Assembly (NCBI GenBank): GCA_002478275.1
Contig: DLMY01000031.1
Location: 62,001 to 126,000, forward strand
Length of the DNA stretch: 64,000 nucleotides
Source of the DNA: Actinobacteria bacterium UBA7524
Lineage (GTDB): Bacteria > Actinomycetota > Coriobacteriia > Anaerosomatales > UBA912
Direction: 5' to 3'
A model generated the notes under the pieces. That model worked only from the letters and a program-made list of their open reading frames with translations. It did no database searches and was not told the origin of the DNA. This document shows positions 609-44,536 of this stretch, one piece after another. How positions within the stretch are numbered: position 1 is the first letter of the stretch; each line of letters starts with the position of its first letter. The position numbers and the translations under genes were made by a program.

Positions 609-618
609 GAATGGGAGC

Positions 619-2022: not shown

Positions 2023-2256
2023 GTTGTGATGGCTGTGTATATCCTTGTTGATTCCCGCTTGAAAAAGTGGGGAAGGTTCTTTCGGGCTGTGGAGTACGTC
2101 TTCTTCGTGTGGACACTGTGGGTGACAGGAACAATCCTTCAACAAGGCCTACACAATAGACACGCCTGCTTCCATCTGGGTTTTATGGGGTTCTCAACAG
2201 TACCCACAGCCCTTATTACTACTACTACTTGTTAGATATAGAAGAGAGGAACAGTA
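2023..2256. other. oriC (dnaA-dnaN intergenic): DnaA-box cluster plus DnaA-trio unwinding element
   Basis: Degenerate boxes TGTGTATAT 2034, TGTGGAGTA 2088, TGTGGACAC 2108, TGTGGGTGA 2117, tandem TTCTCAACA 2191 / GTACCCACA 2200, then GCCC and TTATTACTACTACTACT 2213-2229. Confidence 0.9.
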
Positions 2257-3360: not shown

Positions 3361-3370
3361 TACTCAGCGA

Positions 3371-4486: not shown

Positions 4487-5042
4487 GGGCAAGGAAGTCA
4501 GGCTGGGCGACGCGCTCGGCTCATTCATCAAGAAGGCGGACCGGGACGGCCGCAGTGGTCAATCACGTGCGGTCGAGGTGTGGCGTAAGGTCGTGGGTCC
4601 GGACGTGGCGAAACACACCTTCGGAATCACCTTAAGGCGAGGAGAACTCGTCGTAGCAGTCGACTCGGCACCCTGGGCTTCCGAGCTGTCGATCATGAGC
4701 GATGAGCTTCGAGCCAGAATCAATTCAGAGATGGGTCAGGAAACGGTAAGAGAGATACGCTTCACTGTCTCTCGTCGAGTCGAAGATGAACACAGGACCG
4801 AGCAAGCCGTCCAAGATGCGGTCCGCAAGTACTCACCCGAGATCAAGACACGGCCAATCAGTCTGTCACCCGAGGAAATCGAAGCGGTGAGAAAGAGCGT
4901 TTCGGTCATCTCGGATGAGGAGCTCAGAGACGCAGCATTCAAGGCCACCGTAGTCGACCTTGAGTGGAAAAAGGGTCACGAGCGCCTGAACGTGTCAGAG
5001 AAGGGCACAGGAGGCGCAGAGGGGCCAGAAACGGAGCCGTAA
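4473..5042 (+). CDS. dciA: DUF721/DciA family helicase-loader-like protein
   Basis: W..VVGP.VA.HT...GELVVAVDSAPWASEL...IRF pattern; conserved position between recF and gyrB; start ATG 4473 inferred. Confidence 0.75.
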   Translation: MCPRKGKEVRLGDALGSFIKKADRDGRSGQSRAVEVWRKVVGPDVAKHTFGITLRRGELVVAVDSAPWASELSIMSDELRARINSEMGQETVREIRFTVSRRVEDEHRTEQAVQDAVRKYSPEIKTRPISLSPEEIEAVRKSVSVISDEELRDAAFKATVVDLEWKKGHERLNVSEKGTGGAEGPETEP

Positions 5043-5103
5043 CCCAATCCGTTGTGGTAGAATTCAGTCGTCCACCACAAGATGATGTGGTGTCGTCCCG
5101 TAG

Positions 5104-7053
<1,950 letters not shown>

Positions 7054-7074
7054 ACATATTCCAGGTAGGAGCAC

Positions 7075-7590
7075 ATGGGTCAGACGCCGGACAACTACCG
7101 CCCGAAGAAATTCGAGCCGCCGCCTTGGGAAAGAGCGCAATTCGAGGAACTCGAGCGGTCGAGGGCGGAAGCTCGGGAAGAAGAGGAACTTGCCGCGGCA
7201 CTGAGCGAGTTGGAAGTCCAGGCCACGCCGGAGGAATCACCGGACTCGGAGGCGGCACCGGAGATAGTCCCCGAAGACACTGCCGGAGCCGGCGAATCGG
7301 GGCCGCGGCAAGATCCGCTAACGGATCCCCGCATAGAGGCCATGTTCCTGGAGTTATCCGTATCGGAGCAGAAGGCGGGGGCGGATCTCTGGAAGATCGG
7401 CTTGTTCGGGTCCCTGGTCCTGGCGTGCATCGGCGCGATGCTCTTGGTCTGGGGCGTAGTCGCTGCGGTGCGAACGTCAGGTTCGGGAGGAATGGTGGGC
7501 GCGAGCGTCTTGATAGCGTTCGGCACGGGTTTCGTGGCGCTTGCCGCATGGATGACCATAAGAAGTCTGCGACAACGAGGAGCACACTAA
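7075..7590 (+). CDS. Hypothetical membrane protein (acidic N-terminal region, two C-terminal TM helices)
   Basis: AGGAG RBS before ATG; stop TAA directly abuts gyrA GTG; two hydrophobic segments. Confidence 0.75.
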   Translation: MGQTPDNYRPKKFEPPPWERAQFEELERSRAEAREEEELAAALSELEVQATPEESPDSEAAPEIVPEDTAGAGESGPRQDPLTDPRIEAMFLELSVSEQKAGADLWKIGLFGSLVLACIGAMLLVWGVVAAVRTSGSGGMVGASVLIAFGTGFVALAAWMTIRSLRQRGAH

Positions 7591-10173
7591 GTGGCTGACG
7601 AACCGATCGAACAGACGATACTGCCTGTCGATATCCAGCAGGAGTTGCGGGAGTCGTTCCTCGAGTACTCGATGAGTGTCATCGTGTCGAGGGCCTTGCC
7701 TGATGTGAGGGACGGGCTCAAGCCGGTACACCGACGCATTCTCTACGCCATGAATGAGTCGGGGCTGACCCCGGGGCGGCCCTACAAGAAATCCGCCTGG
7801 ACGGTCGGTGAGGTCATCGGTAAGTACCACCCACACGGAGACGCGGCAGTGTACGCCACGATGGTGCGCATGGCCCAGGACTTCTCGATGAGGATCCCGC
7901 TCGTAGACGGACACGGCAACTTCGGTTCGGTGGACGGCGATCCTGCGGCGGCGATGCGCTATACGGAGGCCCGGCTTCAGAGAGCCGCAGGTGAGTTGCT
8001 TCGTGACCTGGACAAAGAAACGGTGGATTTCGGACCCAACTACGATGAGTCTCTTGAGGAGCCTCTGGTGCTGCCAGCCAGGTTCCCGAACCTTCTGGTC
8101 AATGGTAGTGCAGGCATCGCGGTTGGTATGGCTACGAACATCCCTCCTCACAACCTGGGAGAGACGATCGACGCCGTCACCCACGTCATCGACAATCCCG
8201 ATGCCACAGCGTCGGACATCCTCGGACTCATGCCGGGCCCCGACTTCCCTACTGGCGGCAGCATCATGGGGTGCGAGGGCATTGCGAATTACTACGAGAC
8301 GGGACGCGGGTCGATCAGGGTCAGGGGAAAGGCCCACATCGAACAGACCAGCACCGGCCGGACGCGCATCATCATCACTGAGATCCCTTACACCGTGAAC
8401 AAGTCGAGGCTTGTGACCAAGATCGCTGAGCTCGTGCGCGAGAAGAAGCTGACGGAGATATCCGATCTGCGTGACGAGTCCGATCGCAAGGGCATGCGCG
8501 TGGTCATCGAGCTGAAGAGCTCGTGTGTACCTCAGGTCGTCTTGAACAAGCTGTTCAAGCATACCCAGCTACAGACCGGATTCGGCGTCATCATGCTTGC
8601 ACTGGTCGACGGCGTTCCGCGTACCCTGACCATGGTCGAGATGCTCAAGTACTACATCGAGCACCAGAAACAGGTCGTCACGCGCAGAACCCAGTACGAG
8701 CTGCGCAAAGCCGAGGAGCGCGCGCATATCCTCGAAGGTTACGTCATAGCCCTGGACAACATCGACGAAGTCATCAAGATCATCAGAGGTAGCCAGGACG
8801 ATTCTGAAGCCAAGGCTCGGCTCATCGAGCGATTCGGGCTGAGCGAAGCTCAGACGGACGCTATCCTCGAGATGCGCCTGCGCCGGTTGACGGGCCTTGA
8901 GCGTCACAAGATAGAAGACGAACTCAAGGACCTGCGTGAGCGTATCGCCTGGTACCAGAAGGTGCTCGCAGATGTGAAGCTCGTCTTGCAGATCGTCAAG
9001 GATGAACTCGCCGAGATACGCAGCAAGTACGCGAATCCTCGCAGGACCGAGATCGCAGGAGACGCCGCGGATCTCGATGTGGAGGACCTCATCGCCGAGG
9101 AAGACATGGTGGTGACGATCACGAAGGCGGGGTACGTCAAGCGCCTTCCCGTCGCCACATACCGTCAGCAGAAGCGTGGCGGCAAGGGCGTCAGTGGCGT
9201 CAACCTCAAGGAGAGCGACTTCGTCGAACAGCTGTTCATCAGTTCTACCCACGACTACGTACTCTTCTTCTCCACGAAGGGCAAGGTCTACCGGCTCAAG
9301 GTCCACGAACTGCCGGTGGGCTCCCGGCATGCCCGTGGGACCGCAGCCGTCAACCTGCTGCCTTTCGCACAAGACGAGAAGATCGCCGCTGCGATCACCA
9401 CACGCGAGTTCGGAGCGGAAGACTATCTCCTGTTCGCTACCCGTGAGGGGATGGTCAAGAAGACCGCCTTGCAGGCCTACGACCGTTCCAGGCGGGATGG
9501 GATCATCGCCATCAATCTGCGCGAGGGAGACGAGCTGATAAGTGTCCGGCGAGTCAGGCCGGGCGAGAAGGCGATGATGGTCTCCACAGCAGGCAAGGCC
9601 ATCAAGTGGGACGAGAGCGATGCCCGGCCGATGGGTCGAGACACCATGGGTGTTCGCGGCATGAACATCAAGACAGGAGAAGCCGTCCTCGGCATGGAGA
9701 TAGCGCCGCCCGACGCAGAGCTGTTCGTGGTCACAGAGCGGGGTTATGGCAAGAGGACCCCCGTGAGTGAGTACCCTGAACAGAAGCGCGGGGGTATGGG
9801 AGTCAAGACGATCCAGATCACCGAGAAGAAGGGCCCGTTGGCGGGCATGAAGATCGTCCTGCCTCAGCATGAGTTGATGCTGATCAGCGTCGACGGAGTC
9901 GTCATCCGCGTGAGGGCCAACGACATCTCGAAGCTGGGTCGATCCACGCAAGGCGTGAAGGTGATGAACGTGTGCGCGACCGATAGAGTAGTCGCGATAG
10001 CTCGGGTGGCTGGCAAGCACCGGGCAAAGAGCCAGCCCGTCCCGGAGGGACAGGAGTCATTGCTGGATTCTGAGAGCGGCGAAACGCAGGCCGGTTCCGG
10101 GGCTGTCGACGCACGCGAGGCGGCGGCAGAGGAGTTGGCTAGCGAGGAGTTCGAGGACATAGGTGACGAGTAG
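7591..10173 (+). CDS. gyrA: DNA gyrase subunit A
   Basis: [30 protein letters not shown] catalytic Tyr, GyrA-box QKRGGKG. Confidence 0.99.
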
Positions 10174-10894
10174 CGCGAATTCCCGAGGCGGGGCCGGTGC
10201 CGAGTCCGGTCCCGCCTCACGTGTTCGGGCGGTGCTCTTCGATCTGGACGGTACCCTGCTCGACTCCATCCCGCTCATCCTGTCTTCGTTCAGGCACGCG
10301 ACCGAGACGGTGCTCGGCCAGGCGTTGCCCGACGAAGTCATGCTTCACAACGTCGGCGTACCGCTCGCCACGCAGATGAGGCAACTGGCGCCCGACCATG
10401 CGGAAGAACTCCTGCGCGTCTACAGGGCCCACAACGCGGAGCACCACGACACCTCTGTCGCGGCTTACCCAGGCGTAGCCGAGGCGCTGTCAAAGCTCCA
10501 GAGTGCCGGGTATCCGATGGCGGTTGTCACCTCGAAGATGGGGCCTTTGGCCAGGCGCGGTCTGGAGTTGTTCGGACTCGATAGCTACATGTCGGCTGTG
10601 GTCGGGTGTGAGGACACGCAGACGCACAAGCCCGACCCAGAGCCCCTTCGGGTGGCGGCGGAGCTACTCGGCGTGCCTTTGGAGGCATGCGCGTATGTGG
10701 GAGACAGCGAACACGACATGGCTGCAGCTCTGGCCGGTGGAGCAGTAGCGATCGCTGCCTTATGGGGTCCGTTCGAGCCGGAGCGCGTGCTGGCACCGGG
10801 TCCCGACTACGCATTACCTGAGATAGGGCGACTACCCGAGCTACTGGCTGGGGATGAACAGCGGTATGGTGTGAATGACGTGGTCCGCACCTGA
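10163..10894 (+). CDS. HAD-IA family hydrolase (PpaX/Gph-like)
   Basis: [10 protein letters not shown] motif [21 protein letters not shown]. Confidence 0.93.
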
Positions 10895-16415: not shown

Positions 16416-16492
16416 GGGCCCGTAGCTCAGTTGGTTAGAGCGCACGGCTGATAACCGTGAGGTCACTGGTTCGAATCCAGTCGGGCCCACCA
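16416..16492 (+). tRNA. tRNA-Ile(GAT)
   Basis: Cloverleaf: GGGCCCG/CGGGCCC acceptor, TAGCTCAGTTGGTTAGAGC D-arm, CTGATAA anticodon loop, TTCGAAT T-loop, encoded CCA. Confidence 0.98.
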
Positions 16493-22685: not shown

Positions 22686-25600
22686 CTAGCCACCCAGCAA
22701 CGTGACGCGCACCTCGTGTTCGGCGCCGTCGCGTGCCAGCGGCACGAGCAGCCCGGGGAGGTCCTCGCCGTCCAGTGCCACGCGCTCGACACCGCGGTTC
22801 ACGCCACGGGGATTCTCCACGGTGATCCGGTAGAGGGTGCCTTGGTCCCGGTACTCAAGTTCATAGCTCTTCCATGACCTCGGGATGCAGGGATCGACCC
22901 TCAGATGTCGCTTCTCGTCCTTGACCACGACCCATAAGCCCAGGTGGTGACGTATCACCACTTGATAGAACCATGAGGCCGAGCCGGTGTACCAGGTCCA
23001 GCCGCCACGGCCCACGTGCGGCTCTGCTGCATAGACATCGGCGGCGACGACGTAGGGTTCTACCTTGTAGACATCGGCCGCTTCCCGGGTCAGGGCGTGC
23101 TTCACCGGGTTGATCAGGTCGAGGAGCCCATGTGCCTCGTCACCGTCACCCTGGAGGAGGTAGGCCAGCACCACCCATACGGCTGCATGGGTGTACTGGC
23201 CGCCGTTCTCCCGCACGCCCGGCACGTAGCCCTTGATGTAGCCGGGGTCGTGTTCCATCTTGTCGAACGGCGGCGCCAGCAGTGCCACGATCCCGGTCTC
23301 GCGCTTGATGAGCTTCTCCTCGACCGCGTCGAGTGCGCGCTGTGCGCGGTTCGGGTCGCCGCTTCCGGAGATCGTAGCCCAGGCCTGCGCGATCGCATCG
23401 ATCCGGCACTCCTCGGCATGCCGGGTTCCCAGAGGCGTGCCGTCATCGAAGTAAGCGCGGCGGTACCATGAGCCGTCCCAGCCCTCGGACTCGACGGCCT
23501 GGATGAAGCGCTTCGCGCGTTCGCGGTACTCGGAAGCCCGCTCGGGTTCGTCCATCAGCTCGCACAGTGGTGCGAAGCGCCGGAGCACCACGTCGAGGAA
23601 CCAGCCGAGCCACACGCTCTCTCCCGTACCATCGATGCCTACCCGGTTCATGCCGTCGTTCCAGTCNNNNNNNNNNNNNNNNNNNNNNNNNNNNNNNNNN
23701 NNNNNNNNNNNNNNNNNNNNNNNNNNNNNNNNNNNNNNNNNNNNNNNNNNNNNNNNNNNNNNNNNNNNNNNNNNNNNNNATGCCGTCGTTCCAGTCGCCG
23801 CCTCCCATCAGCGGCAGACCGTGCGGACCCGTCCCTGCTCCCGCCTCCAGCGCCGCGACGCAGTGCTCGTAGACGGTCGCCGCTTGCTCGGACGTTGTGG
23901 GCTGCATGTAGTTGTCCTCGCGACCCTCCTCGAGCGGCGGTCCTTCGATGAACGCCGTGCGTTCGTGCAATACGCTGGTGTCCCCGGTCGCCTCGACGTA
24001 CTCGGCGACGACATAGGGCAGCCAGTGCCGGTCGTCCGTGATGCGTGTGCGTACCCCCCGGCCCGAGACCGGCTGCCACCAGTGCAGCACGTCGCCTTCG
24101 GGGAATTGGTGCCTGCTGGCTTCCACGATCTGTTCGCGCACGAGGTCCGGCCGCGCGACCATCAGGGCGAGTACATCCTGGAGCTGGTCGCGGAAACCGT
24201 ACGCGCCGCTGCTCTGGTATGTCGCTGTGCGGCCCCACAAGCGGCAGGCGAGGGCCTGGTACAGAAGCCGCTCGTTGACGAGAAGGTCGAGAGCGGGATC
24301 GGGCGTCTTGGCCTGTACCGTGCCGAGGAGATCCCGCCACATCCCCCTCGCTTCTTCGAGTGCAGCATCGACTTCGCCCGGCATCCGGTACTTCGCCACC
24401 AGATCACGTGACTCGTCCAGGGTAGGTGTCTGGCCGAGCAGGAACGTCACGACCACGGATGCCCCAGGCTCCAGCTCGAGCTGTGTCATGAGCGCGCCGC
24501 AGTTGTCGTGGTAGCGGCCCGTGTGTCGCCCGAGCTCCCTGCGGTGCATCGCGGCGGGATCGGAGGGTCTGCGATTGCGGCCTACGAACTCGGTCCGGCT
24601 TCCGGTGAAGGAATGAAGCGGCCTGTCGCATGCCAGGAACGCCGCGCGGCCCGGGAAGTCCGGGTTGTGGTGATTGTGGGCGGTGAGCGTCTCGCGTTCC
24701 GCGTCGTACCAGGTGACGACGAGGTGCTGCGCCTTGCTGCGTGAGTTGCCGAGCACCCACTCGACGAACTGAGTGACGGACAGGCGTCGCGTGCGATCGG
24801 TGAGGTTCTCCAGCTTCAGACGAGCGACCCGCACCGGGTCTTCGACCGGCACGAACAGGTCGAGGGTGCTTGCGATCCCGTGTGATGTGTGTTCGAAGCG
24901 ACTCGAACCCTTCGAATGACGGACCATGTAGGGCGCAGTCCCACGGACCGGCAGCGGGGTGGGGCTCCAGAACTGGCCGGTCTCCTCGTCGCGCAGGTAG
25001 ATGACCTCGCCGCTGCCGTCGGAGACGGGATCGTTGTTCCAGGTGGTGATTCGGTTCTCGTGGCTGTTCTCCGCCCACGTGCAGGCGATGCCCGCCTCGC
25101 TGACCATCGTGCCGAAGCGCGGTGAAGCCATCACGTTGATCCACGGTGCGGGCGTCACGGTGCTCTCATCAAGGACCATCACGTAGTCGCCGGTCTCAGG
25201 GTCGAAGCCGCCGTAGCTGTTGTCGTAGAGAAGCTCGGGACGCGCGAACGGCGGTTGCGGGTCATCCTGTGCGGGACGCGAGGGCACCAGCCGGGGAGGT
25301 TCGACCGGGCGAGTCGCCCTGCGGTTGAGCTGGACTTCAAGAGCCCCGCCGTCACCTTCCAGCGTCGCGCGGGCGACGGACAGCAGCAGGTTCATCACGT
25401 CGGGGTGCATCTGGTCCGCACGGCGCAGGTAGACCCCGCCCGGCTTGTCGACCAGTTGCAGCGCGTGCCCGGTTCGCACCAGAAGACGCAGGCGCTCGTC
25501 GAGCTCATCGGCGTAGGAGGTCGGGCGCGTGTTCAGAACGACCAGGTCGGCGACGAGCCCTTTGTGACGCCAATACTGGTGGGCGAGAAGCGCCTGGCGC

Positions 25601-28600
25601 ACCAGAGGCGTGTGCTCCAGGTCTTCGATCCGGACAAGGAGTATCGGGTAGTCGCCCGAGACCCCGATCGACCAGAGCCCGGAGAGCGGCAGACCGTTCT
25701 CAGTCGGAGTCTTCACCTTCAGAACGGAGTGGGGGTCTGTCAGTAGCAGTCGAGACGCGAGTCGCTGGAGCGTCACGGCTTCCTGGGGAGTGATGCCGAG
25801 GTCCCGCAGTTCGATCTGTGCTGTGGTCCAGGCCAGGTCGATCGCCCTTTGCGCGCTGCGGACGTCGTGATACGTCTCCGCGAGACGAAGCGCTGCCTCG
25901 CGCGTGTCCGCCACACCTGTCACGAACACCAGGCGCACGCTCGAACCGGCGGGGATCGTGACGCCCTGGCGGATCGCGCACGCGGGATCCAGGACCGCGC
26001 CTGTCGTTCTGGAGAGCGGGCCTCCTGCGACTACTGCAGCGGGTGCGTCGGTGCCGTTGAGGCGGCCGATGAACCTGGCCCGGTCCGTCTCGTAGGACCA
26101 TTCGCACTTCTCTTCGGCCTCGCACGCCATGACATGCAGACCGAAGGGCCGGGGTTCCTCGGCGGAGCGGGGTCTGCGGGAGAAGACGATCGCGTGCAGG
26201 TGCTCGATCGCCTCGGTCTCGACGAAGAGGTTCGAGAAAGACTTGTGCATCTGGTCGGCCGCCTGGTCGGCGAGTGAGATCTCGAAGTAAGAGGTGACCT
26301 CGATGCGGCGCGGCTCCCGGCTGCGATTCGCCAGTGTCAGGCGCCTGACTTCGACATCGTCTTCCGGGGAGACTGATACTTCCACGTGTGTTTCGATATC
26401 GCCGTCGACGCGGCGATACTCGGCCTTGTCCGCCGAGTAGGTCACGTGGTAATCCTCGGGCTTCAGGATCCCCGGGTTGTGGGCGGCAGTCCAGATCACA
26501 TCGTTGTCGACATCACGCAGGTAGAAGAACTGGCCCCAGCAGTCCCGCGTCACGTCCTCCCGGTAGCGGGTGACCGCCATGTCCTGCCAGCGGCTGTATC
26601 CGCCGCCGCCGTTGGTCACCATTACGGAGTAGCGCCCGTTGGACAGGAAGTGAGTGGACGGCACAGGCGTATCCGCGAGGGGGTACGCTCGAATGACGGG
26701 AGGCGGCAACTCGCGAACGGAGCGGACGTGCTTGACCTCCTCCACATGGGGCTGTGTGAGCTGGGCGCGGCTGGGAACGCGCTCCTGGAGCAGCAGTTCG
26801 GCCGAGCCGACCATCGGGTCGCCGTGGAAGCGGTCGTGCATGCGGTACCCGGTCAGTTCGTTGCCGATGGCTACCAGGCTCATCCCCTGGTGGTGGGCGA
26901 AGTACGCGCGCACCACGGCGCGCCGAGCGCCAGCAGGCACTCGTCCTGGCGTGTAGTCGAGCGCCTCGTAATAGCCGTAACGGCCGCGTCCGCCCTGTTC
27001 GGCGAGTACGCGCAGGTTCTCGTACGCCTCACTCGCACTCACCGGAAGCGCAAGCACCGTCGCGTAGGGCGCGATGACGATATCGTCCGACAGGCCGCGC
27101 TTGAGTCCCAGGCCCGGCACGCCGAAAGCCTGGTACTGATAGACGAGTGCAGCGTCCTTCGCGTTGAAAGCGGACTCCGAGACCCCCCAGGGCACGCCGC
27201 GCTCCTGGCCGTACTGTATCTGCCGCTTCACGACGGAACGAACTGTCTCGTCGAGCATGGTCAGCGGCCAGGTGCGCATGACGAGCATCGGCATGAGGTA
27301 CTCGAACATCGAAGCGCTCCACGACAGTAGCGCGCGCCCTCCCGCAGTGCCGGTCACGGCCCGGCCGAGCCGGAACCAGTGCTCCTGGGGCACATCGCCC
27401 TTCGCGATCGCAAGGAAGCTCGCCAGCCTGCATTCGCTTGCGAGCATGTCGTAGTACGAGGGGTCGAGCCTGCCCTCGGCGGTGTTGAAGCCGATGGAGA
27501 ANNNNNNNNNNNNNNNNNNNNNNNNNNNNNNNNNNNNNNNNNNNNNNNNNNNNNNNNNNNNNNNNNNNNNNNNNNNNNNNNNNNNNNNNNNNNNNNNNNN
27601 NNNNNNNNNNNNNNNNGCGGTGTTGAAGCCGATGGAGAAGAGCAGCCGTCGCGCGTCGAACAACAGGCGGAAGTCCGTGTGCTCCCACATCTGTCGCGCG
27701 ATCGCCGCATCAAGACGTAGGCGACCGAGCAGTTCCTGGCAGTCGGGCCGGGCGGCCCTGATACCGTTGGCGACTTCCGAGGCCCAGCGCGCGGCCTCCT
27801 GCCGTTCTTCTGCCGAGGAACCCGGAGGATCGTCAGCGAAAGAGTCGAGGACCTGCAGCACGACTTCGAGACCCTCCGCCAGTCCGACCAGGCTCGGGAC
27901 GTAGTCGAGTATCGGCGCGAGCTGAGGCCAGCGTGGGTCCGATGCGACAGCTACCGGGACCCGGGTCAGGGATTCCGCCCACGGCGCCAGGTCTTCGAGG
28001 AGGACGCGAGCCTTGCTGACGCGCTCCTCGATCGCGTGTATCGAGGCGCGCACTCTTGCCAGGGGTGATGCCGGGTGAGGAGTGCCCGTTGTAGCGTCCG
28101 GGTCCCCGTCCTCCAGCTCACAGGCTGAAGCGGTGGCGGCCTTGACCAGGGTCTCCAGACGGGCAAGCAGAGCGCTCCAGGCGCCGAGGTCGACGAGTTC
28201 TTCGTCCAGGGCGACGTCACGCTCGAGTTCATCGAGGCTCTCACGCAGCAGGCGTACGGTTTCGTCCGGACTCAGTCTGTCCCTGTCGACGAACAGGTCC
28301 TCGATCGCCAACGAGATCGTGTCCACGAGTCCTTCCAGCAGCTGTTTGTCGAGCAAGGGGCCTTCCGAGGCCTCCAGGAGCCCCATTCGCAGCACCAGAA
28401 GATGTCCCGCGAGGTTGCCACTGTCGACCGTCGAGATGTATTTGGGAGGGAGTGGTTCGAGTGTGCGACAGTCGTACCAGTTGTAGTAGTGGCCTCCGAA
28501 GCGTTCGAGTCCCACCATCGTGTTGAGTGTGTCGGCGGTACGGGAGATCAGTTCTCGCAGCGTGACGTAGCCCAGGTCGAAGGCGGTCAGCGCTGAGAGC

Positions 28601-31600
28601 AGCTGCAGACCGATGTTGGTCGGCGATGTCCGCCACGCGACCTCCCCGTTGGGATCTTCCTGGAAGTTGTCGGGCGCCAGGTGGTGGCCGTAAGGCGTCA
28701 CGAAGGTCTCGAAGAAGCGCCATGTCCTCCTGGCAGTGCGGCGCAGGTCACGGCGGGCGTGTCCGTCGAGCGGCTCGGGTTCGGTCACCCGTACTTGCGA
28801 GATCCGCCATGCGATGTATGGAGCCGATGCCCAGACTGCCGCCAGAAGCAGCGAGGGTGCGATCCGTTCCAGGTGCGTGACGCACCCGGGTATCAGTAGG
28901 GCGATCGCTACCGCCGAGGAAGGCGCGAGCCGCCTTGTGAATCCGGCCAGGTCGTCTTTGAGGCGCTTCTCGGCATCGGCCGCAGTCTCCCATTCCAGCA
29001 GACCGCGGTGCGAGACGGCCATACGCCACAGGGCTCGGCAGATGGCGTCGGTCATCACCTGGGCCTGATGCGGTATGAGCGCGAGTGTCAGCAGGGCCCG
29101 GGCGGAGTCCCTGCCGAACTCTCGCCATGCAGCTGCAGCGACCGTCGCGAAGGGGATGGTCGCTGGGCGTGCCACGATTGCGTCCGCCAGCGCGAAGTAG
29201 GCGGGGAAGAAGACCACAAGACCGAAGGCGAGAGGCCAGACCCACAACGGACCCGGCAGCAAGAACCATCCGAGCGTGATGAGGGCGAGCGATGAGGGGG
29301 CAACCAGACTTCGTCGCAGGTTGTCCAGTATCTTCCAACGATGCAGGCGGGAAAGCGGGTTCGGTGTCAGGCCGTGTTCGCCGCGGACGCGCGGAGTGAG
29401 CCAGGGAAGGGTTTGCCAGTCACCGCGGACCCAGCGGTGGAGCCGTGCCATGTGTGCGAGATAACTCGCCGGGTGATCGTCGAACACCTCCACATCGGAG
29501 GCCAGTGCGACGCGCAGGAAGCTTCCCTCGATCAGGTCGTGCGACAACAGGGTGTTCTCCGGGAAACGACCATCCAGCAGCGTGTTGAACAGACTGACCT
29601 CGTATATGCCTTTGCCGGTGAAACTCCCTTCACCGAACACGTCTTGATAGGTGTCGGACACCGCCCCGGCATACGGATCGATCCCGGTTGGACCTGAGTA
29701 CAGCCAGGCGAAGAATGAGCGGGACGATGCGGGCAGCGACATGCTGACCCGTGGTTGCACCAACCCGTAACCTCCGAGCACTCGCTCGTCTCCGGGTGCG
29801 ACCCTCGCGCGGTTGAGCGGGTGCGCGATCGTGCTGACGAGTTTGCGCGCTCCGTCGCGCGGCAGTACCGTGTCCGCATCGAGTGTCAGTACGAAAGTGA
29901 CCGCTCGCAAGAACTCTTCATCGCCGGTGACGTGCGCGAACGAGGTGTCCGAAGACGCCCGCAGCCAGTGATTGAGCTCCATCAGCGATCCGCGCTTGCG
30001 CTCCCATCCCATCCACGAGTTCTCTGCTTCGTTGAAGCGTCGCTCCCGAATGAACAGCGCGAACGGCCGCCTGCCGTGTTCCACCTCGTACCGCTCGTTG
30101 AGTGAGGCTATACCTTCGATAGCGGCCTCGATGATGGCGGCGTCTCCTACTACCCGCTGGTGTTCGGAGGCCCTCAGGTCGCCGAGGAGACCGAAGCCCA
30201 CGTTGTCGTCCCTATTGGCGAGGTACGCGACCTCCAGGTTGTCCAGCACTTTGCGCACCGCTGGAACGGACGTGATGAGCGCGGGAACTATCACGAGGGT
30301 GCGGTGTGACTCCGACAGGGGCTGAAGATAGTCGAGCTTCGGTAGTACCCGCGGTGGGAATACCCATGCAGAAAGCCGGTTGGTCATGCTCAACGCGAGG
30401 TCAGAGAGCGGGATCAGCGCCAGTAGCGCCACTATCGCCAGTGCCCTCGTGCCGGAGCCCTCAAGCAGCAGCCAGGTCGCCAGCATGCCAAGCAGGGCGA
30501 CGGTCAGAACGGCAAGAACACCCCAGTAGAACAGTCCCTTGTTGGCGAGAGGCCCTCGGTATAGCACCTCTCTGAAGTGCGGACGGTAGCGGACCGAGCG
30601 TTCGAACTTGAACCGGCTTGCGCTGATCAGGTAGTGGCCTACGTGCCCTGCCACCTGGTCGCTGGGGTCCGTGATCAGGGCTTGGACACAGTGAGAGATG
30701 ACTGCTTCGGCCACGGTGATCTCATCGAGGGGCGTCCGCCTGGCGAGAGACTCGAGCGCGTGCCGGTACCGGTCGCGGCTCTTGAAGTCCATACGGGGGT
30801 AGACCCCTGATGGGTCCTGCCTCAGGATCTGTTCGACGACACAGGCGGTCTCGAAGAACGTCCGCCATTCGTAGGCGTCGAGGAAGCGGATGGACGTGAT
30901 GGTGTTCGCGATGGATATCTGGTCAGCGGCTTGCGCCTGCTGCAGGTCGTGAGCCAGTTGGTCGAGTGTGATCCCAAGGGCAGACAGCCGCCGCTCCAAC
31001 CACGCCCCGATAGGCTCGACCCCGATGTCTTGTCCGCTCAGGCGCTGAGAGAGCCTCATGAGGAACACCGGAGACGCCTTGGCCACTTCCGATTCCAGGG
31101 CATCGATCAACTCGCGAAGGCTCTCGGTCTGTTCGGGGGCGGCGAGCAAGAGCCTGTCTGCCCAGACATCCGCCCTTCGTCCGGCGACGTGCGCCTCGGC
31201 GACACTCCGAGCCAGCCGGCGTGCGTTCTCGACGAGAGCCACGCGCAACATGATCGGGACCGCCCACACTTCACCGATGGACCATGGGCTCGAGTCCTGG
31301 AAACCGTCGCTGAACTCAAGCAGGTACTCTTCATCGATGCGCGCGTCGGTGTGTGCTATGAGCGTGACCGCGCATGCGTACACTCGGGGCAGTCCGGCGA
31401 ATGGACCCTCGAGCACCCGCGGCAGTTCGCGTCCGTATCCCGACGGCAGATCGGAACGTACCGTTTGCACCTGCTCCTCGATGAGATAGTAGTTGTCGAG
31501 GAGCCATTCGCTCGCCGGCGAGATGGGGTGCTGAAGACGTACCGCTTCGGCTAACAAGGAGTTGTGGCTGCCCATCTCGGCCCCGGCATCGTCGACCATC

Positions 31601-31758
31601 TGGCGCAGCGGAGTGTCCCGCGTTGCCGGGGTCGTGCTCCATGTCAGTTGTTCGGCCAGCTCCCGGGCGCGCACTCTGAGACGTTCGGCAGTCAGCAGGG
31701 TGGCGCGGAAGGGGCCCGAATCGGCAACGGTCTGTGTATTCGGCGCCTGGAAGGGCAC
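22686..31758 (-). CDS. ndvB: Cyclic beta-1,2-glucan synthase (NdvB/ChvB/Cgs-like), ~2934 aa once two gap overlaps are collapsed
   Basis: WERKRG, LDADT, SHDLIEG, RLHRWVRGDWQ (GT domain); TSPTNIG, WSASMFEY, PWGVSES; GH94-like GFRDQLQD, GDWNDGMNRVG (rebuilt across gap), RENGGQYTH, WTWYTGSA; 9073-268=8805 nt in frame. Confidence 0.9.
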
Positions 31759-31884
31759 AGCTCACTCCCCTGATCGGCCGCGTGGGCCGGTCGCTGTTGG
31801 TCGTATCCTTGCTAAGCAAGGTGGCAACGCGATAGGTGTATTATCCACAACGGCGGCGGGGAGAGGACAGGGTACTGGCGACTA

Positions 31885-31902
31885 TATACCCCAGGGGGTA
31901 TA
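31885..31902. promoter_or_regulatory. CsoR/CstR/RicR-type operator overlapping -10
   Basis: Perfect palindrome TATACCCC-AG-GGGGTATA overlapping TATACT 31899-31904, 40 nt upstream of the rhodanese ATG. Confidence 0.75.
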
Positions 31903-31941
31903 CTGAGCGCACATCGGCAAAGAGTCAGGAGTCATGATCTC

Positions 31942-32649
31942 ATGAAGAACCCAGGCAAGATCGCCATATGGGCAGTCATAGGGATAGCGGTGCTGGTCAT
32001 AGGCTTCATGGCATTCTCGCCGGCGGAAGGCACGGTCGAGAATGTCGATGCGAGGAGACTGGCAGACCTCGTCGCTTCCGGCGTGAGGGTGATAGACGTC
32101 CGAACGGAAGGTGAGTACGCGGCCGGGCACATCGCAGGTGCAGAGCTCGTACCGATCGACCGGTTCGCTCAGGCGGCGGCTACATGGGACCGCACTGTGC
32201 CGCTCGCGGTGTACTGTGCGACCGGACAGCGCTCGACGACTGCAGTGAACCACCTGTCCGGCCAGGGATTCGAGAAGGTATATCACTTCAATGCCGGACT
32301 CGTGGCCTGGAGCGGAACACTGGAAAGAGGTGCCACTGCCGCGGCGCCAGCCCCAGAGCCGACAGCCAGTGCGCTGCCGGTCGTCTACGAGTTCTTCACT
32401 GACACTTGACCCGCCTGCGTCCAGGTGAAGCCTGTGGTCGACAGGCTGGTCAAGGAGTATGAGGGCAAGATTGAGTTCAGGCTCCTCAACGCGGGTACCG
32501 ACGCTGAAGCCACTGATCTGATGATGAGATTCGGAGTGACGGCCGTGCCGACGTTCGTGTTCCTCGGCAGTGATGGCGCGAACGAGGGCAAGATCATCGG
32601 GGCGGCGTCCGAGCAGGAACTGCGCGCCAAGCTCGACTCGCTCAAGTGA
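31942..32649 (+). CDS. Selenocysteine-containing rhodanese-thioredoxin fusion (235 aa, Sec156, UPAC)
   Basis: ORFs 31942..32409 and 32425..32649 share a frame; TGA 32407 sits at the first Cys of a Trx CxxC (YEFFTDT-U-PAC); rhodanese IDVR, GHIAGA, CATGQRS; Trx VPTFVF. Confidence 0.88.
32406..32453 (+). promoter_or_regulatory. Bacterial SECIS-like element
   Basis: AGCCTGT-GGTCG-ACAGGCT hairpin (32429-32447), loop starts with G 26 nt after UGA; lower stem TTGACC/GGTCAA. Confidence 0.75.
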
Positions 32650-32691
32650 CGTTGGTGTTGGACGCTCGTGCGACGTGGGTATATTCATTAC

Positions 32692-33124
32692 ATACCGGGT
32701 CTGAGCCCGGAAGGTACGTTGATAACGGCAAAGGAGTAGACCCGGTGACAGAAGTCGTTTCAGGCCGGGATGGCAGATGAAGGCCTCTGGATCGGCCCAG
32801 GACTGAAAGAGTCGGTACGTAGAGAGTCACTGTACTGTCGGTTCGATCGGTAAGGGCGCCGGAGAGGCGCCGACTTGTGGGATCGTATTGTAGGAAGCGA
32901 GTCGGGTCACCAGAGAGTCGGGCATAAGCCTCTGGATCGAAGAGGGTGCGGCCGAGAGGGACCGCTCACTCGGCCAAGAGCCCTCAAGGATATCCCTTTG
33001 GAGGGGACCCTCAGGCGGTGCGAAGGTCATCCCGGCATCACCAAGCAGTGAAACCGGCTACTCTGAATGGTCGTTACAGTCGATATCTGCGTGGCCCACG
33101 GGTTGGTACCGTGGGCCACGTTTT
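32692..33124 (+). ncRNA. Candidate large structured ncRNA (6S/Ms1-like topology, family unassigned)
   Basis: TTGGAC-N16-TATATT promoter at 32658-32685, nested long-range helices, no credible ORF, perfect terminator. Confidence 0.7.
33090..33124 (+). terminator. Intrinsic terminator
   Basis: CGTGGCCCACGG-N7-CCGTGGGCCACG followed by TTTT. Confidence 0.9.
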
Positions 33125-33197
33125 GTATCGCGCATGCTATAGTGTGTGTCCGTTCGGACCGTCCGGCGCTTCGCCGGTGCGCTCCGGGTGAGACTAT

Positions 33198-33272
33198 GGG
33201 CGAGTGGCGCAACGGGAGCGCACCTGCTTTGCACGCAGGGGGTTGTCGGTTCGAATCCGATCTCGTCCACCA
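33198..33272 (+). tRNA. tRNA-Ala(TGC)
   Basis: Acceptor GGGCGAG/CTCGTCC with G3:U70, CCTGC-TTTGCAC-GCAGG anticodon arm, TTCGAAT T-loop, CCA; TGCTATAGT extended -10 upstream. Confidence 0.95.
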
Positions 33273-33434
33273 NNNNNNNNNNNNNNNNNNNNNNNNNNNN
33301 NNNNNNNNNNNNNNNNNNNNNNNNNNNNNNNNNNNNNNNNNNNNNNNNNNNNNNNNNNNNNNNNNNNNNNNNNNNNNNNNNNNNNNNNNNNNNNNNNNNN
33401 NTTCGAATCCGATCTCGTCCACCATGAGAAGTCG

Positions 33435-39356: not shown

Positions 39357-41705
39357 CTAAGGGACCGCGCACAGCTCGCGGATCGAGTCGTATACACCAT
39401 TCGAGATCGCGGCTTCGCCTCCGAATACGGCGATGCTCTCGATCCTGTTGCGGTTGATGAGCAGCATCGAGCGGGTGTCGGTGACGAGAACGTCCGGCCT
39501 GGTGAGCAGTAGCACGCCGCCGCCGGCGCCGGTCGCCGCTCCCCCTCCCAGGGCGTCGGGGAAAACGAGGCCGGTCGCGACGCCCACGCGTGAACAGGAG
39601 GCCCAGCCCTTCGAGACGGCGTGGTCGGCGAATGCGCGGGCGGTAGCGTAGCGGTCTGGTCCGGCCACACGGGTCCACGCGACATCCGAGCCGGTGAGCG
39701 CATCGGTCACGGCGGAGGAGACGGCGTTCTCACCGCCTACGACCGTCGCCGAGGAGATCCTGATGTCGTCGATGGCCCTGGCGGTGGCGTCGGGGAGCTG
39801 CGAAGGTCGCACGAGCAGAACAGGGGCCCTTCGCGCGTACGCGACTGGAGCGGCGGCCAGCGCATCGGCGAAGCCGTCCCCGCGCACCATGAACGCTTCG
39901 CGCTTGAACGCGGACCCCTGGAGGTCGGCGATCTCACGCGCAACCTCCGCGGCGGTCCCATAGCGGTCTTCCCCTGCGATGCGCGTGGTCAGGAGTCCGC
40001 TTCGCTGCAAGGACAGCTCGACCTGCTCGGATATGGCGCCCGGGCCGCCGACAAGCACGGCCCTCTTGGCGCCGAGCCGGACCAGCTCGGAGAGAGTGTC
40101 GGTTCTCAGAGTGTCGCGTGGCGTCAGGAGCAGCGGTGAACGGTATGCGCCCGCGAGTCCGGAAGCAGAGAGCGCATCGGGGAAGTCGTGGCCTACCGCC
40201 AAGACCACAGTGTCGGCCTGACCGGCCTCGTACGTCGCACGAGAGATCTCGAGTGCGGTCGCGTAACGATCGGGACCAGCGATGCGGGTGAGGCTCATGG
40301 GCATGATGGGGGCAGAGGGGGGGCCGTAGAGTGCGACGATGCCCGCCCGGTCCCCTTCGGCCAAGACCCTCTTCGTCGTTCCGGACTTCGACATGCCGTA
40401 CATCACCTTGGGGGCATCCGCTTCTCCGTACAGGTCACCCAGGGCAAGCCAGTGCCCGAACTCATGGGCGGCGACCGACTGCACGTCGAACGTGCCTGGT
40501 GAACCGTCCCCCCAGTTGCTCACCGAGTCACTGAAGATGACGTCGGCCTCGCATATGTCGTACCTGCCATCGCCGTTGGAGTCGCGGCGGTAGAACCAGA
40601 CGCGGGCCTCGGCCAGGGCGCCAGAGAAGCTCGTCGTGCCCCACCACACCTCATTGACCGCGTTCTCCCCGCGCGGGGCGCTGGTCGTGCCGTCGGCCGC
40701 GAAGAGCAGCCCAGAGCTGCCGTTCCATGCCGATGCTCCCCGTTCTACCTGTGTACGTCTCGTAGAGCTGACGTTCGAGGAGACCTTGAACGGTACGGTT
40801 GCGTTAGGCCATGCCGCCGGACCCAGTGAGTACGGGACATCCAGGTGGAAGCCGGGGGAGGAGCCCTGTGCCGCACTCCACACTAGTACCGGCCCCGAGC
40901 TGATCGAGCCTGGCACTTCCACCAGTATCGAGCCGTCGGACCACGAAACGACATTGGTGGCCGGAAGATAGGTACTCGCGGCGTAGTAGAAGTAGACCTC
41001 TCCACGCGTGTCGCCGAAGCCGGTTCCAGTGATCGTGATGAGCGCGCCGGCTCCGGCGGGTGCCTGAGCGGGACTGATGCTGGAGATCATCGGTCCTCCG
41101 GCGGACGAAGCGGTACCTTCCACGTCGCCGGTCGCCTCCGGAGACGTTCCGGTCAGGGCGGCGACCGGGGACGTCTCGAATGTCTGGACGGGTGGTGGCG
41201 AAACGACCGGGAAGCCCTGGCGCGCAAGGCGTACCCTGTGCTCGAAGAGCTGCAGGGGCTCGCCGGTGCGCTCGATCCGTTCGTCGCGCACCCTGAGCAC
41301 TCCCTGGTAGCCACCCACCACACGGCGTCGGGCGTCGAGGAACACGACCACGCGCTCCCCTCGGTGAAACGAAGGCGCGCCTGACACCCATAGGGTCTTG
41401 TCGCCGAGAGAGCCGCCGGGAACGGCCAGCACCACATCATCGGGCAGGGAGCCGGCCATGTGGGCACTCACCGCGAGCCGCACCTCGGTGACGATGCCAC
41501 TCTCGTTGTCTGACCGGGCGACAGTCGACACGACCTCAGCGACAACGACGTCGCGGGCCGCCAACGACAGTGCGGCGTCGTTCATCGGCTGCATCAATGC
41601 GTCGGCCGGTGACGGCATCGCGAATAGCGCACTCGCCAGCGTGGCGACCGATATCGCGCAAGCTGCGATGCAGCGGGGGAACGTTGTGAGACCTCGACTC
41701 AGCAC
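39357..41705 (-). CDS. Secreted metzincin-like metalloprotease with IPT/TIG domain and three CWB2 repeats
   Basis: Signal peptide; ITITGTGFG..W.D.SI.V.VP (IPT); HEFGHWLALGD + VMY Met-turn; RIAG.DRY.TA and (F)PDAL/ADAL...LL repeats; start GTG 41705 inferred. Confidence 0.85.
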   Translation of the reverse strand: MLSRGLTTFPRCIAACAISVATLASALFAMPSPADALMQPMNDAALSLAARDVVVAEVVSTVARSDNESGIVTEVRLAVSAHMAGSLPDDVVLAVPGGSLGDKTLWVSGAPSFHRGERVVVFLDARRRVVGGYQGVLRVRDERIERTGEPLQLFEHRVRLARQGFPVVSPPPVQTFETSPVAALTGTSPEATGDVEGTASSAGGPMISSISPAQAPAGAGALITITGTGFGDTRGEVYFYYAASTYLPATNVVSWSDGSILVEVPGSISSGPVLVWSAAQGSSPGFHLDVPYSLGPAAWPNATVPFKVSSNVSSTRRTQVERGASAWNGSSGLLFAADGTTSAPRGENAVNEVWWGTTSFSGALAEARVWFYRRDSNGDGRYDICEADVIFSDSVSNWGDGSPGTFDVQSVAAHEFGHWLALGDLYGEADAPKVMYGMSKSGTTKRVLAEGDRAGIVALYGPPSAPIMPMSLTRIAGPDRYATALEISRATYEAGQADTVVLAVGHDFPDALSASGLAGAYRSPLLLTPRDTLRTDTLSELVRLGAKRAVLVGGPGAISEQVELSLQRSGLLTTRIAGEDRYGTAAEVAREIADLQGSAFKREAFMVRGDGFADALAAAPVAYARRAPVLLVRPSQLPDATARAIDDIRISSATVVGGENAVSSAVTDALTGSDVAWTRVAGPDRYATARAFADHAVSKGWASCSRVGVATGLVFPDALGGGAATGAGGGVLLLTRPDVLVTDTRSMLLINRNRIESIAVFGGEAAISNGVYDSIRELCAVP

Positions 41706-41974
41706 GTTTCCTTCCTGATCCGTTCGGCGTCCATTGTATCGGTCGAACCGGCCGCCGAGCCCAGGGCGTCTCGCCGGGCGGTCGAAACGAACCGCTGACG
41801 CCTGGCCGTATATCAGTGTCACCTGCTCGTTACCCTCCCGCCACCGGGACTGAACGTTATCGACCGACTCTAGTATCAGGCCGTGGGAACCACAGGGCCT
41901 GACATGACGAGGAGGGCGAGGGCCGCGTTACCGGGCCCGACGCTCAGGACAGCAAATGGAAGGCCGGATCGAAA

Positions 41975-43126: not shown

Positions 43127-44536
43127 ATGCACATCAGAGCACCTAGGACGGACGTCCGCGTTCCGGCGCGGGTGTCGCGAGCTGTGGGCATGGCCATTCT
43201 TGGCCTTGCCCTTGTAGTGGTTGTGATCGCATCTCCCGCTCGTGCGTTCGCCGAGGAACCCGCCGGCGAAGTGCTCGTTCTCACGTTTCCACAGGTGCCG
43301 GATTCCTATCTCGGATGGCGCAGGTCTCCGACGTTCCTCACTGTGGTGCCGCTCTCCCCCGGCACGGTCTACTACACGTGGGACGATCCGTTCGGTGGCT
43401 GGCGACCACTGACAGGCCCGATCGTCGTACCTGAAGGCAAGCGGACGTTCATGACCCGGATCATGCGACCGGACGGTCGCCCCTCCGCCATAGAGCGTTT
43501 CGAGACACGTCTCGATTACCGTCTCGTCACGGCCAAGCCGAGGGTCTCTGCGCAGGCCGCCCCGTCGAGCACGAGTGTGAGGGTCACGGCTCGTATCAGG
43601 GCCCAGCCGGGTACGCGTATCCTGCGCATCGGTGGCGCGGACCGCTATGACACCTCCGCCCGCATCTCCGAAGCCAACTTCACCAGCGCACACACCGTCA
43701 TCGTCGCGACGGGCACGAACTATGCGGACGCGCTTTCGGCCTCCGGCCTCGCCGGCTGTCTCGATGCACCCGTGTTACTGACCCGCCCCACCAGGCTTTC
43801 CGGATACGCCGCCGAGGAGATACGTCGACTCCGCGCATCTCGGGCGATCGTCGTCGGCGGGGAGGCGGCGGTGAGCCGCGCAGTCGCGAGTGACCTCGTC
43901 GCTCTCGGGCTGGCCGTCGAACGCATCGGCGGCAGGGACCGCTACGAGACCGCGGCGTTCATCGGCAACCGGGTCATGACGTACGGCAATCCGGGTGGGC
44001 GTGTCTTCATTGCGAGAGGCGATGATTTCGCTGATGCGTTGTCCCTGGGGCCATTGGCTTACTCCTCGAACGCTCCACTCGTACTGGTCAGACCAGCGAC
44101 CGTGCCGCCTGCGACGCGCTCCTTCTTGGGCGCTCATAGTTTCTCCTCAGGCTGCATCGCGGGCGGTACGGTCGCGGTTTCAGAGGCGGTGGAGCGAGAG
44201 GTCGACCGTTATGTCGGGCAAGTGATCAGGCTGGCGGGCAATTCGCGCTACAGCACTTCGGTCGCGGTAGCGGCGTGGGCCGTAAGCGAGGGGATCGCTT
44301 CGTACGAGATGGTCGGCATCGCGACGGGTGTCGATTTCGCGGATGCCCTGTGCGGAGGAATCGCCGCAGGTGCGAACGGAGGGGTGATCCTGCTCACGCG
44401 GCCGGGAGATCTTCCGGCCGCCACAAGCGATGCCATGCAAGCGGTGATCCGTGACATCCGAGACGTCCAGGTATACGGTGGTGAGGTAGCCATACAGCCG
44501 GGGGTCATCAGCTCGATCTCTTCCATGGCGAGATGA
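43127..44536 (+). CDS. Secreted cell-wall-binding repeat 2 (CWB2) protein
   Basis: Signal peptide ending AFA; RIGGADRYDTS, NYADAL, DFADAL x2, PVLLT/VILLT. Confidence 0.9.
   Translation: MHIRAPRTDVRVPARVSRAVGMAILGLALVVVVIASPARAFAEEPAGEVLVLTFPQVPDSYLGWRRSPTFLTVVPLSPGTVYYTWDDPFGGWRPLTGPIVVPEGKRTFMTRIMRPDGRPSAIERFETRLDYRLVTAKPRVSAQAAPSSTSVRVTARIRAQPGTRILRIGGADRYDTSARISEANFTSAHTVIVATGTNYADALSASGLAGCLDAPVLLTRPTRLSGYAAEEIRRLRASRAIVVGGEAAVSRAVASDLVALGLAVERIGGRDRYETAAFIGNRVMTYGNPGGRVFIARGDDFADALSLGPLAYSSNAPLVLVRPATVPPATRSFLGAHSFSSGCIAGGTVAVSEAVEREVDRYVGQVIRLAGNSRYSTSVAVAAWAVSEGIASYEMVGIATGVDFADALCGGIAAGANGGVILLTRPGDLPAATSDAMQAVIRDIRDVQVYGGEVAIQPGVISSISSMAR

Follow-up and report, generated by a model that had tools for sequence, protein, structure and literature searches.

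Introduction

The DNA considered here is a 64,000-nt stretch from Actinobacteria bacterium UBA7524 (the window, to which coordinates refer), and the question that it raises is what kind of molecule is made from a gene of about 435 nt at 32690-33125 on the + strand. An initial annotation had read the locus as an unannotated, independently transcribed, structured RNA with the architecture of the 6S and Ms1 RNAs, that is, an RNA polymerase decoy with a large extra domain, or alternatively as a new large class of non-coding RNA (ncRNA). Few large RNAs of bacteria combine an intricate fold with a conserved sequence. Those that are understood (ribosomal RNAs, RNase P, tmRNA, SRP, 6S, riboswitches and ribozymes) do fundamental jobs, and the orphans OLE, raiA, ROOL and GOLLD are actively studied and may each conceal new biochemistry.

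We conclude with high confidence that the RNA represents a real, independent family of structured ncRNAs, previously unclassified. Our best explanation as a whole, a stand-alone structured ncRNA gene of a new family, probably stress-induced and trans-acting, is held with moderate confidence; its most specific part, a stress-induced mechanism in which the RNA acts in trans by binding a partner, is put forward tentatively.

Results

The RNA gene directly follows a gene for a membrane-anchored rhodanese-thioredoxin fusion protein (31942-32649, + strand), and relatives were collected through this neighbour. A genome scan with the fusion protein (alignment A1) returned 80 loci: 49 (L001-L049) carry the fusion gene in bins of uncultured Actinomycetota/Coriobacteriia, with best-segment identities of 33-57% to the window protein, and the remaining 31 are from other phyla. 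The RNA was found directly 3' of the fusion gene in 38 of the 49 loci, giving 39 members with the window. An nhmmer search with the RNA sequence alone matched 37 of the 49 loci, just after the gene, and an nhmmer profile matched the window and the same 37 loci, every time on the + strand just after the gene; the profile found no second copy in the window and no match in the 31 loci of other phyla. These 38 sequences, the window and the 37 profile loci, form the alignment on which the counts below are based. A covariance model of the 3' domain only (27 pairs) scored all of them at 44-116 bits and added the last member, L031 (29.4 bits), in which the same parts were recognised on reading at the same position. 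One further hit (L043, 3988-4080 on the - strand, 25.2 bits, E 0.007) was rejected as false, being on the opposite strand, upstream of the gene and without helix P1 and the GGGCAUAAG box described below. The 11 fusion loci without the RNA mostly hold more distant copies of the gene, one of them ending at the gene, and include second gene copies from two bins that have the RNA elsewhere.

As judged from the alignment, the conserved unit is 32764-33036, and it does not reach the ends of the window transcript. RNAalifold, run on 31 sequences with no prior structure, predicted six helices, P1 to P6, with 21 of 38 pairs compensated. In the model described here, 90.3% of 1763 cells are paired; sliding the 3' partners by 1-3 columns lowers this to 34-53%. 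Changes on both sides of a pair were seen in 31 of 47 pairs (211 cells, against 27-62 when slid). None of 500 column shuffles attained any of the five measures recorded for the core model. Recurring G-U pairs at fixed positions (UG in 26 and 29 of the 38 sequences at two pairs) work only on the + strand. The initial annotation had been made from one sequence, and this conservation with covariation in 38 is the strongest sign that the structure is not due to chance. Folding of the window sequence on its own gave a minimum free energy of -203.6 kcal/mol for 32690-33125 on the + strand, against -164.9 +/- 6.5 kcal/mol for 100 dinucleotide shuffles (z -5.93; 0/100 as good); the opposite strand gave -163.6 kcal/mol (z -3.80). 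Each of the elements first proposed (promoter words, 5' hairpin, nested helices, bubble and inner hairpins) is present where it had been placed, and the + strand fold includes the helices among them.

The core is modelled as two stacked three-way junctions, P1-P2-P3 and P3-P4/P5-P6. It is closed by P1 (32764-32774 with 33026-33036), an uninterrupted helix of 11 pairs in which 97.6% of cells are paired and 5 pairs changed on both sides; the initial annotation had listed it as GCCGGGATGGC at 32764 with GTCATCCCGGC at 33026 (equal to GCCGGGAUGGC/GUCAUCCCGGC). P1, P2 and P3 meet at the strands AGAnnAA, GG and GAAG, the first of which (AGAUGAA in the window, 32775-32781) is near-invariant. P2 (32782-32790 with 32910-32919) has 9 pairs, 8 of them changed on both sides, and carries a variable multi-hairpin extension (32791-32909). 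The 5' strands of P3, GGGCAUAAGCCU (32920-32931), comprise those of P3a (32922-32923 with 33020-33021), which is invariant in 38/38, and of P3b (32928-32931 with 33013-33016), which is 95.4% paired with 3/4 pairs changed on both sides; an AUAA internal loop separates the two. At the second junction P3 meets the coaxial P4/P5 hairpin and P6, together with a conserved AAGGAUA strand. P4 (32942-32947 with 32980-32985; 6/6 pairs changed on both sides) encloses the P5 hairpin (32950-32960 with 32965-32975; 8/10 pairs), and the P6 hairpin (32993-33007; 5 pairs, 93.2% paired) follows AAGGAUA, its register being set by the covariation of columns 550 and 565 (GC in 18, UA in 11). The stretch 33013-33036, which takes in the 3' strands of P3, the GAAG junction and P1's 3' strand (AGGCGGUGCGAAGGUCAUCCCGGC), is the most conserved of the family. 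Altogether ~45 columns show either no variation or conservation of 90% and above, mainly in the junctions, GGGCAUAAG and GCGAAGG.

Core length ranges over 160-284 nt in the 38 aligned members, minimal ones such as L025 and L022 having 160-181 nt. Among 19 members that were folded, the P2 domain measures 25-138 nt; it shrinks to a simple hairpin in L022, L025, L029 and L035, with L027 also short, and on this comparison the P2 extension is dispensable. The extension (32810-32860 and homologs) contains two or three copies of a GGUUCG/GGUAC word, as in CGGUUCGUACGUCACUGGUUCGUCGGUUCG of L010 and L013 and the near-identical forms in L021 and L046; the word is T-loop-like and not self-complementary. 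A 12-mer, GCCTCTGGATCG, occurs twice in the core, at 32783-32794 (the 5' strand of P2) and at 32928-32939 (the 5' strand of P3 and the next junction), both copies being preceded by AU(G/A)AAG in the family consensus; the pattern could point to a pair of similar structural modules, or to a duplication within the RNA long ago. By eye, the GAUGA and GAA strands of the junction resemble a hammerhead, but this reading was rejected, the order of the strands being wrong for it and the bases variable. Several GGA motifs brought up a CsrA sponge as a further candidate reading.

The covariation also bears on a protein-coding explanation, in which a decayed or very small gene would use a Shine-Dalgarno-like box in the leader, described below, as its ribosome-binding site. 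A strong box is present in 26/38 leaders, and in 13 of these 26 a start codon follows 3-13 nt on. In the other 13, however, a start codon is missing there, and where one exists the peptides differ in frame and length, so that the candidate small open reading frame (ORF) was discarded. The substitutions in the helices are compensatory, the core tolerates large insertions and deletions over its wide range of lengths, and stops occur in all three frames of the core in 36/38 members, which speaks against the decayed coding sequence that the initial annotation had allowed for. Pfam gave no match for six ORFs over or beside the RNA. A coding gene is thus scarcely credible, and the RNA encodes no protein.

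Outside the core, the window sequence can be folded further. The 5' strands of three outer helices (32723-32746) pair with 33053-33076 as TAACGGC (32723)/GTCGTTA (33070), GAGTAG (32734)/CTACTC (33058) and CCGGT (32742)/ACCGG (33053), and between these and P1 lies a 17x16 bubble of unpaired strands (32747-32763, 17 nt, and 33037-33052, 16 nt). The 6S/Ms1-like proposal takes this bubbled rod for a mimic of an open promoter that sequesters RNA polymerase, with the inner 250 nt as an accessory. In the window the ends do pair through three helices around the 17x16 loop, with 5' and 3' hairpins, which resembles the description of Ms1 in an excerpt of PMC9130861 (~300 nt, with a central bubble and a short hairpin at both the 5' and the 3' side, and plentiful in stationary-phase cells), and a promoter of the stress type would suit such a decoy. 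The relatives, however, do not keep the rod. Over the 18 outer pairs 41.0% of cells are paired, as high a value was reached by 306/500 shuffles, and slid controls gave 33-41%; the flanks align poorly, and this count is therefore weak on its own. Stronger, independent evidence comes from the terminators. In 13/38 members the terminator hairpin starts no more than 16 nt after P1 (simple custom scan), so that the 3' strand for pairing with the leader is gone, and where the spacer between P1 and terminator is longer it usually forms a hairpin of its own. Leader-trailer pairing is visible only in the window and L005. The closing stems and bubble are, on the evidence of the alignment, specific to the window and not family-wide, and what had been called a large extra domain turns out to be the conserved core, with its near-invariant junction bases.

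Searches for the known decoys agree with this. The Rfam 6S model gave no match at the gathering score, at E <= 10 over 32500-33300 or at E <= 1 in seven homologous loci. According to the excerpt of PMC9130861, Ms1 homologues may show no detectable sequence similarity, so that a missing sequence match does not by itself speak against Ms1; the same source defines Ms1 by its structure, by synteny with genes for an HAD hydrolase (phosphoserine phosphatase-like) and an oxidoreductase, and by binding to the polymerase core. This synteny is absent here, the nearest HAD gene of the window (10163-10894) being 22 kb away. A 6S/Ms1-like decoy is very unlikely, and, as far as comparison of the sequences can tell, the RNA is not an open-promoter mimic.

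Known families were searched more widely. The only matches of Rfam 15 to the window at the gathering score were two tRNAs. With the threshold relaxed to E <= 10, the interval 32500-33300 showed just chance-level matches to small nucleolar and long non-coding RNAs (E 4.3-10), and the complete sequences of the seven homologous loci yielded, at E <= 1, nothing but tRNAs and a single chance match. The absence of RNase P, tmRNA and SRP, first claimed from missing signatures, was borne out, with no Rfam match to any of them and with ARAGORN reporting two tRNAs and no tmRNA in the window. There was no Rfam match to raiA, and its conserved linker UUAGA(C/A)GUAA occurs in 0/38 members. Nothing matched when the RNA was compared with plasmids and phages by blastn, and the RNA is not described in the literature searched on structured ncRNAs, a search whose scope excluded the supplements of large motif surveys. 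Because no 6S or raiA model matched, the rod is unconserved, the Ms1 synteny is absent and the raiA linker is missing from all 38, the RNA is filed under no known family; it is held by no curated library. The second of the original proposals, a new large class of ncRNA, agrees with the lack of an Rfam match, the 39 members and the strong covariation, and the same three points support the description of the RNA as unannotated, independently transcribed, structured and non-coding.

The independence of the gene was considered from its ends. A conserved GGGTATA box (32677-32683) precedes the RNA, exact in 22/38 members and matching at 6 or more of 7 positions in 33/38, 49-118 nt before P1; among the 38, GGGTAT is kept position by position in 37 (G), 35 (G), 38 (G), 32 (T), 37 (A) and 31 (T). 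The window contains 6 copies of the GGGTATA word where 1.08 are expected. An excerpt of PMC8346170 gives GTTTAA-N14-GGGTAT for SigB-type promoters and GNNT...GGGTAY for those of Streptomyces, and lists GGGTAT, GGGTAC, GGGAAT and GGGTAG as -10 forms for SigB homologues, with a G/T-rich box 12-14 nt upstream. By likeness to these, the box is proposed as the -10 element of a SigB/SigF-type promoter and GTTGGA (32657-32662), 14 nt upstream of GGGTAT, as its -35-like element. The promoter words first noticed, TTGGAC (32658-32663) and, after a 16-nt spacer, TATATT (32680-32685), are indeed present, the latter overlapping the box, but are better read as GTTGGA-N14-GGGTAT. A sigma-70 promoter scan found no site because TTGGAC agrees with TTGACA at only 3/6 positions; across the family the last T (-7) of a would-be sigma-70 -10 is T in 9/33, and TTG is present as -35 in 9/33. 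We infer that the RNA is transcribed from its own stress promoter of the SigB/SigF type.

Just after the predicted start at ~32690-32692 the window folds into a 5'-terminal hairpin, CCGGG/CCCGG (32695-32710), and in the homologs a hairpin of different sequence also stands at the start of the leader. The Shine-Dalgarno-like box follows at 32730-32736; it reads AAAGGAG in the window, and many homologs have GGAGGUGA. Matches of 6 nt or more occur in 26/38 leaders, 29-49 nt before P1, where shuffles gave 7.3 +/- 2.5 (maximum 16, n=500). When full transcripts were folded without constraints, the noise was too great to tell the pairing partner of the leader. In Gram-positive mRNAs a Shine-Dalgarno-like sequence near the 5' end, known as STAB-SD, stabilises the transcript by attracting 30S subunits, and the conservative reading of the box, by analogy, would be a 5' stabiliser of this kind.

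At the other end an intrinsic terminator occupies 33089-33125, with a 13-bp stem, a 7-nt loop and a T-rich tail. The terminator of the initial annotation was confirmed in itself but not in its length of 12 bp, the scan counting 13 pairs at 33089-33121, then TTTGTAT. A comparable GC-rich hairpin followed by T was found 9-63 nt after P1 in 33/38 members, again by the simple custom scan.

The gene upstream deserves attention in its own right. An in-frame TGA (32407-32409) stands at the first cysteine position of its thioredoxin motif, which reads U-P-A-C, and an in-frame TGA (U-P-x-C) is present in 50/50 genes (the window and the 49 loci; L047 has N nearby). Among 42 aligned database relatives, all but one full-length form end exactly at that codon, as calls of 152-157 aa. 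Since the TGA is present in every gene and database calls stop there, the rhodanese-thioredoxin fusion looks like a conserved, largely unannotated selenoprotein family. Just upstream of the gene lies a palindrome, TATACCCC-A-GGGGGTATA (equal to ATATACCCC-A-GGGGGTATACT; 31884-31904), which contains two of the GGGTATA-word copies and shares bases with the sigma-A-like promoter (TTG... TATACT) that precedes the selenoprotein gene. Upstream of the fusion gene, 45/50 have an ATACC-N3-9-GGTAT palindrome, and the promoter there has TTG at -35 distance in 41/45 and the canonical last T of the -10 in 41/45. The type-2 operator of the CsoR family is given as ATATACCCCTNAGGGGTATAT in an excerpt of PMC3902906, where a half-site does not bind. 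The agreement of the palindrome with this consensus suggests copper- or persulfide-responsive repression of the selenoprotein gene; a CsoR-like gene was not seen among the neighbours scanned. The box of the RNA is the half GGGTAT only, without the upstream ATACC. With this half-box, and with the last T and the TTG each in only 9/33, the promoter of the RNA differs in kind from that of the fusion gene.

This difference matters for the possibility that the RNA is a cis-acting or processed element of the 3' untranslated region of the selenoprotein mRNA, with a role in its stability or translation, as the source of a 3'-derived small RNA, or in selenocysteine decoding. The strict adjacency in the same orientation in 39/50 genes (one locus ends at the gene), with proteins 38-57% identical to that of the window, would fit such an element, as would the presence of GGGTAT upstream of both gene and RNA and, in the window, a hairpin-free gap of 28 nt between stop codon and GGGTATA. 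Against this, a hairpin followed by T lies between stop codon and box in 22/33 members, the box keeps a fixed distance from the RNA and not from the gene, the two promoters differ in type, and the TGA is ~350 nt upstream of the core. Moreover, the in-frame TGA is kept in all 11 fusion genes without the RNA, so the RNA is unneeded for selenocysteine decoding. We regard a 3' element of the mRNA as unlikely.

Downstream, the window has a tRNA-Ala(TGC) gene (33198-33272, Rfam and ARAGORN) and an ABC transporter. A tRNA-Ala is found further on in 34/49 loci, the stretch between RNA and tRNA-Ala ranging from ~60 nt to 8 kb, and the downstream tRNA has its own promoter-like TGCTATAnT box. In 12/30 loci a convergent gene of 112 aa comes just after the RNA, encoding P-II in 2/2 tested and standing beside amtB in 4/4 tested. 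ORF calls were crude in the GC-rich loci, many being without a Pfam match, and only those for amtB, P-II, a histidine kinase, a DUF255/thioredoxin-like protein (L013) and NAD_binding_1 (L041) were taken as reliable.

A riboswitch, or some other 5' leader whose terminator would regulate the genes after it, has to be weighed against this arrangement. The compact, junction-rich fold with conserved junction bases and then a terminator does have the look of an aptamer and expression platform. The next gene, however, is either convergent (the 112-aa gene) or a tRNA with its own promoter-like box, the distance to the next co-oriented gene is highly variable, and no alternative antiterminator pairing was seen. 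As its downstream neighbours are convergent or variable, the RNA is not the leader of a downstream gene, and a riboswitch is extremely improbable.

A convergent amtB-glnK pair ends by the RNA terminator in L004, L008, L010, L017, L020, L021, L033, L036, L037, L039, L040 and L049; the pair is absent from the window. After the tRNA-Ala of the window comes a masked run of N (33273-33401), one of six such runs of 101-129 nt in the window, and the same 23-nt 3' end of the tRNA is present on both of its flanks (33250-33425), so a second, tandem tRNA copy is probably under the mask. The genes dnaA, dnaN, recF, a DciA-like gene, gyrB and gyrA occupy 535-10173, followed by tRNA-Ile at 16416 and tRNA-Ala at 33198. 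The dnaA-gyrA order shows that the beginning of the window is the region of the chromosomal origin, and from the tRNAs after it the RNA gene lies close to the origin. An ORF of 2771 aa (23443-31758, - strand), interrupted by two runs of N, has GT2, glucoamylase-like and GH94 domains and looks like a cyclic beta-1,2-glucan synthase. The ORFs at 39357-41822 (- strand) and 43127-44536 (+ strand) have three CWB2 cell-wall-binding repeats each, and one also has TIG and matrixin-like domains.

Discussion

The results suggest the following model. The RNA would be transcribed alone from a SigB/SigF-type stress promoter, its 5' end protected by the hairpin there, and transcription would stop at the intrinsic terminator, so that the RNA might accumulate under stress or in stationary phase. 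Its folded core would work in trans by binding a single specific partner, which might be a protein or else a small ligand. The Shine-Dalgarno-like box of the leader may stabilise the transcript by attracting 30S subunits, or it may be a second contact site.

Several points weigh against this model. The promoter, the start site and the stress induction are all read from sequence. Conservation is poor around -35, where only a G at -20 (25/38) and the T/G after it are enriched, and no gene for a SigB-type sigma factor was seen among the window genes scanned. Upstream read-through is possible in the window because its stop codon and box are only 28 nt apart with no hairpin between them. The Shine-Dalgarno-like box is missing from 12/38 leaders, and in those that have it the predicted accessibility does not exceed that of the remaining leader (the mean probability of being unpaired is 0.43 in the box and 0.45 elsewhere; the box has the higher value in 10/26). 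The strict linkage to one gene could indicate a role in cis, and, as all members were fetched through that gene, the distribution and copy number rest on the synteny. Finally, a mutual-information scan, which with 38 related sequences has limited power, gave no signature of a pseudoknot or ligand pocket; its one notable extra pair, columns 441/578 (A32912 and U33019), may reflect clade structure.

A bolder statement, which we consider improbable, would be that the RNA belongs to a new class of large bacterial RNAs of complex fold, which have their own biochemical task, are specific to a deep, uncultured branch of the Actinomycetota and are induced by the general-stress sigma factor. In its boldest variant the extended box (up to GGAGGUGA, 8 nt presumably complementary to the 3' end of 16S rRNA) would dock the RNA on the anti-Shine-Dalgarno of free 30S subunits, and the core with its two junctions, once docked, would affect the ribosome, in sequestration or hibernation under stress. 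Alternatively, the core might fold into a ligand sensor or a catalyst with a part in the response of the neighbouring gene to sulfur/selenium or copper stress.

Whichever mechanism applies, a core of 160-284 nt with two junctions, ~45 fixed bases and its own gene structure is a well-defined target for structural and binding work, in a family that comes from lineages known only as metagenome bins. The fixed pairing with a selenoprotein gene under a CsoR-type operator, together with the stress-type promoter, offers concrete starting hypotheses. The locus also serves as a warning about 6S-like drawings made from one sequence, which can mislead: comparison with relatives placed the functional part in the supposed accessory domain and no longer in the rod.

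Comparison with known systems begins with the gene's ends. The promoter resembles SigB/SigF promoters in its GGGTAT hexamer, in the variants GGGTAC, GGGAAT and GGGTAG, and in a G/T-rich -35 ~14 nt upstream, as these are presented in the excerpt of PMC8346170; it differs in that its -35 is weakly conserved. The leader is like STAB-SD in having a Shine-Dalgarno-like box near the 5' end with no conserved ORF after it, plus a 5' hairpin. Here, however, the box stands in a non-coding RNA, ~40 nt into the transcript, and its predicted accessibility is not raised.

The proposed mode of action would be that of the raiA, 6S and Ms1 RNAs, which work as whole folded molecules and not by antisense pairing. 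Closest in style is the raiA motif RNA of Bacillota and Actinomycetota, which is also a stand-alone, probably single-copy structured ncRNA gene and is placed in Coriobacteriia, too, in excerpts of PMC10861870 and PMC12968392. The junction layout and the conserved sequences differ, the raiA linker is in none of the 38 members and no pseudoknots are supported: whereas raiA has P1a-c with GU and GGU bulges and the pseudoknots PK1 and PK2, P1 is here one uninterrupted 11-bp helix, the pseudoknot scan being limited to 38 related sequences. Like the family described here, Ms1 and 6S are independent ncRNA genes, of 180-300 nt or more, and are expressed in stationary phase or under stress, as is proposed for the present RNA. 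The window copy can be drawn in the manner of Ms1, with a bubble and terminal hairpins, but bubble and stems are not common to the family. In 6S and Ms1 it is the shape that is conserved and not the sequence; here it is the sequence rather than the overall shape.

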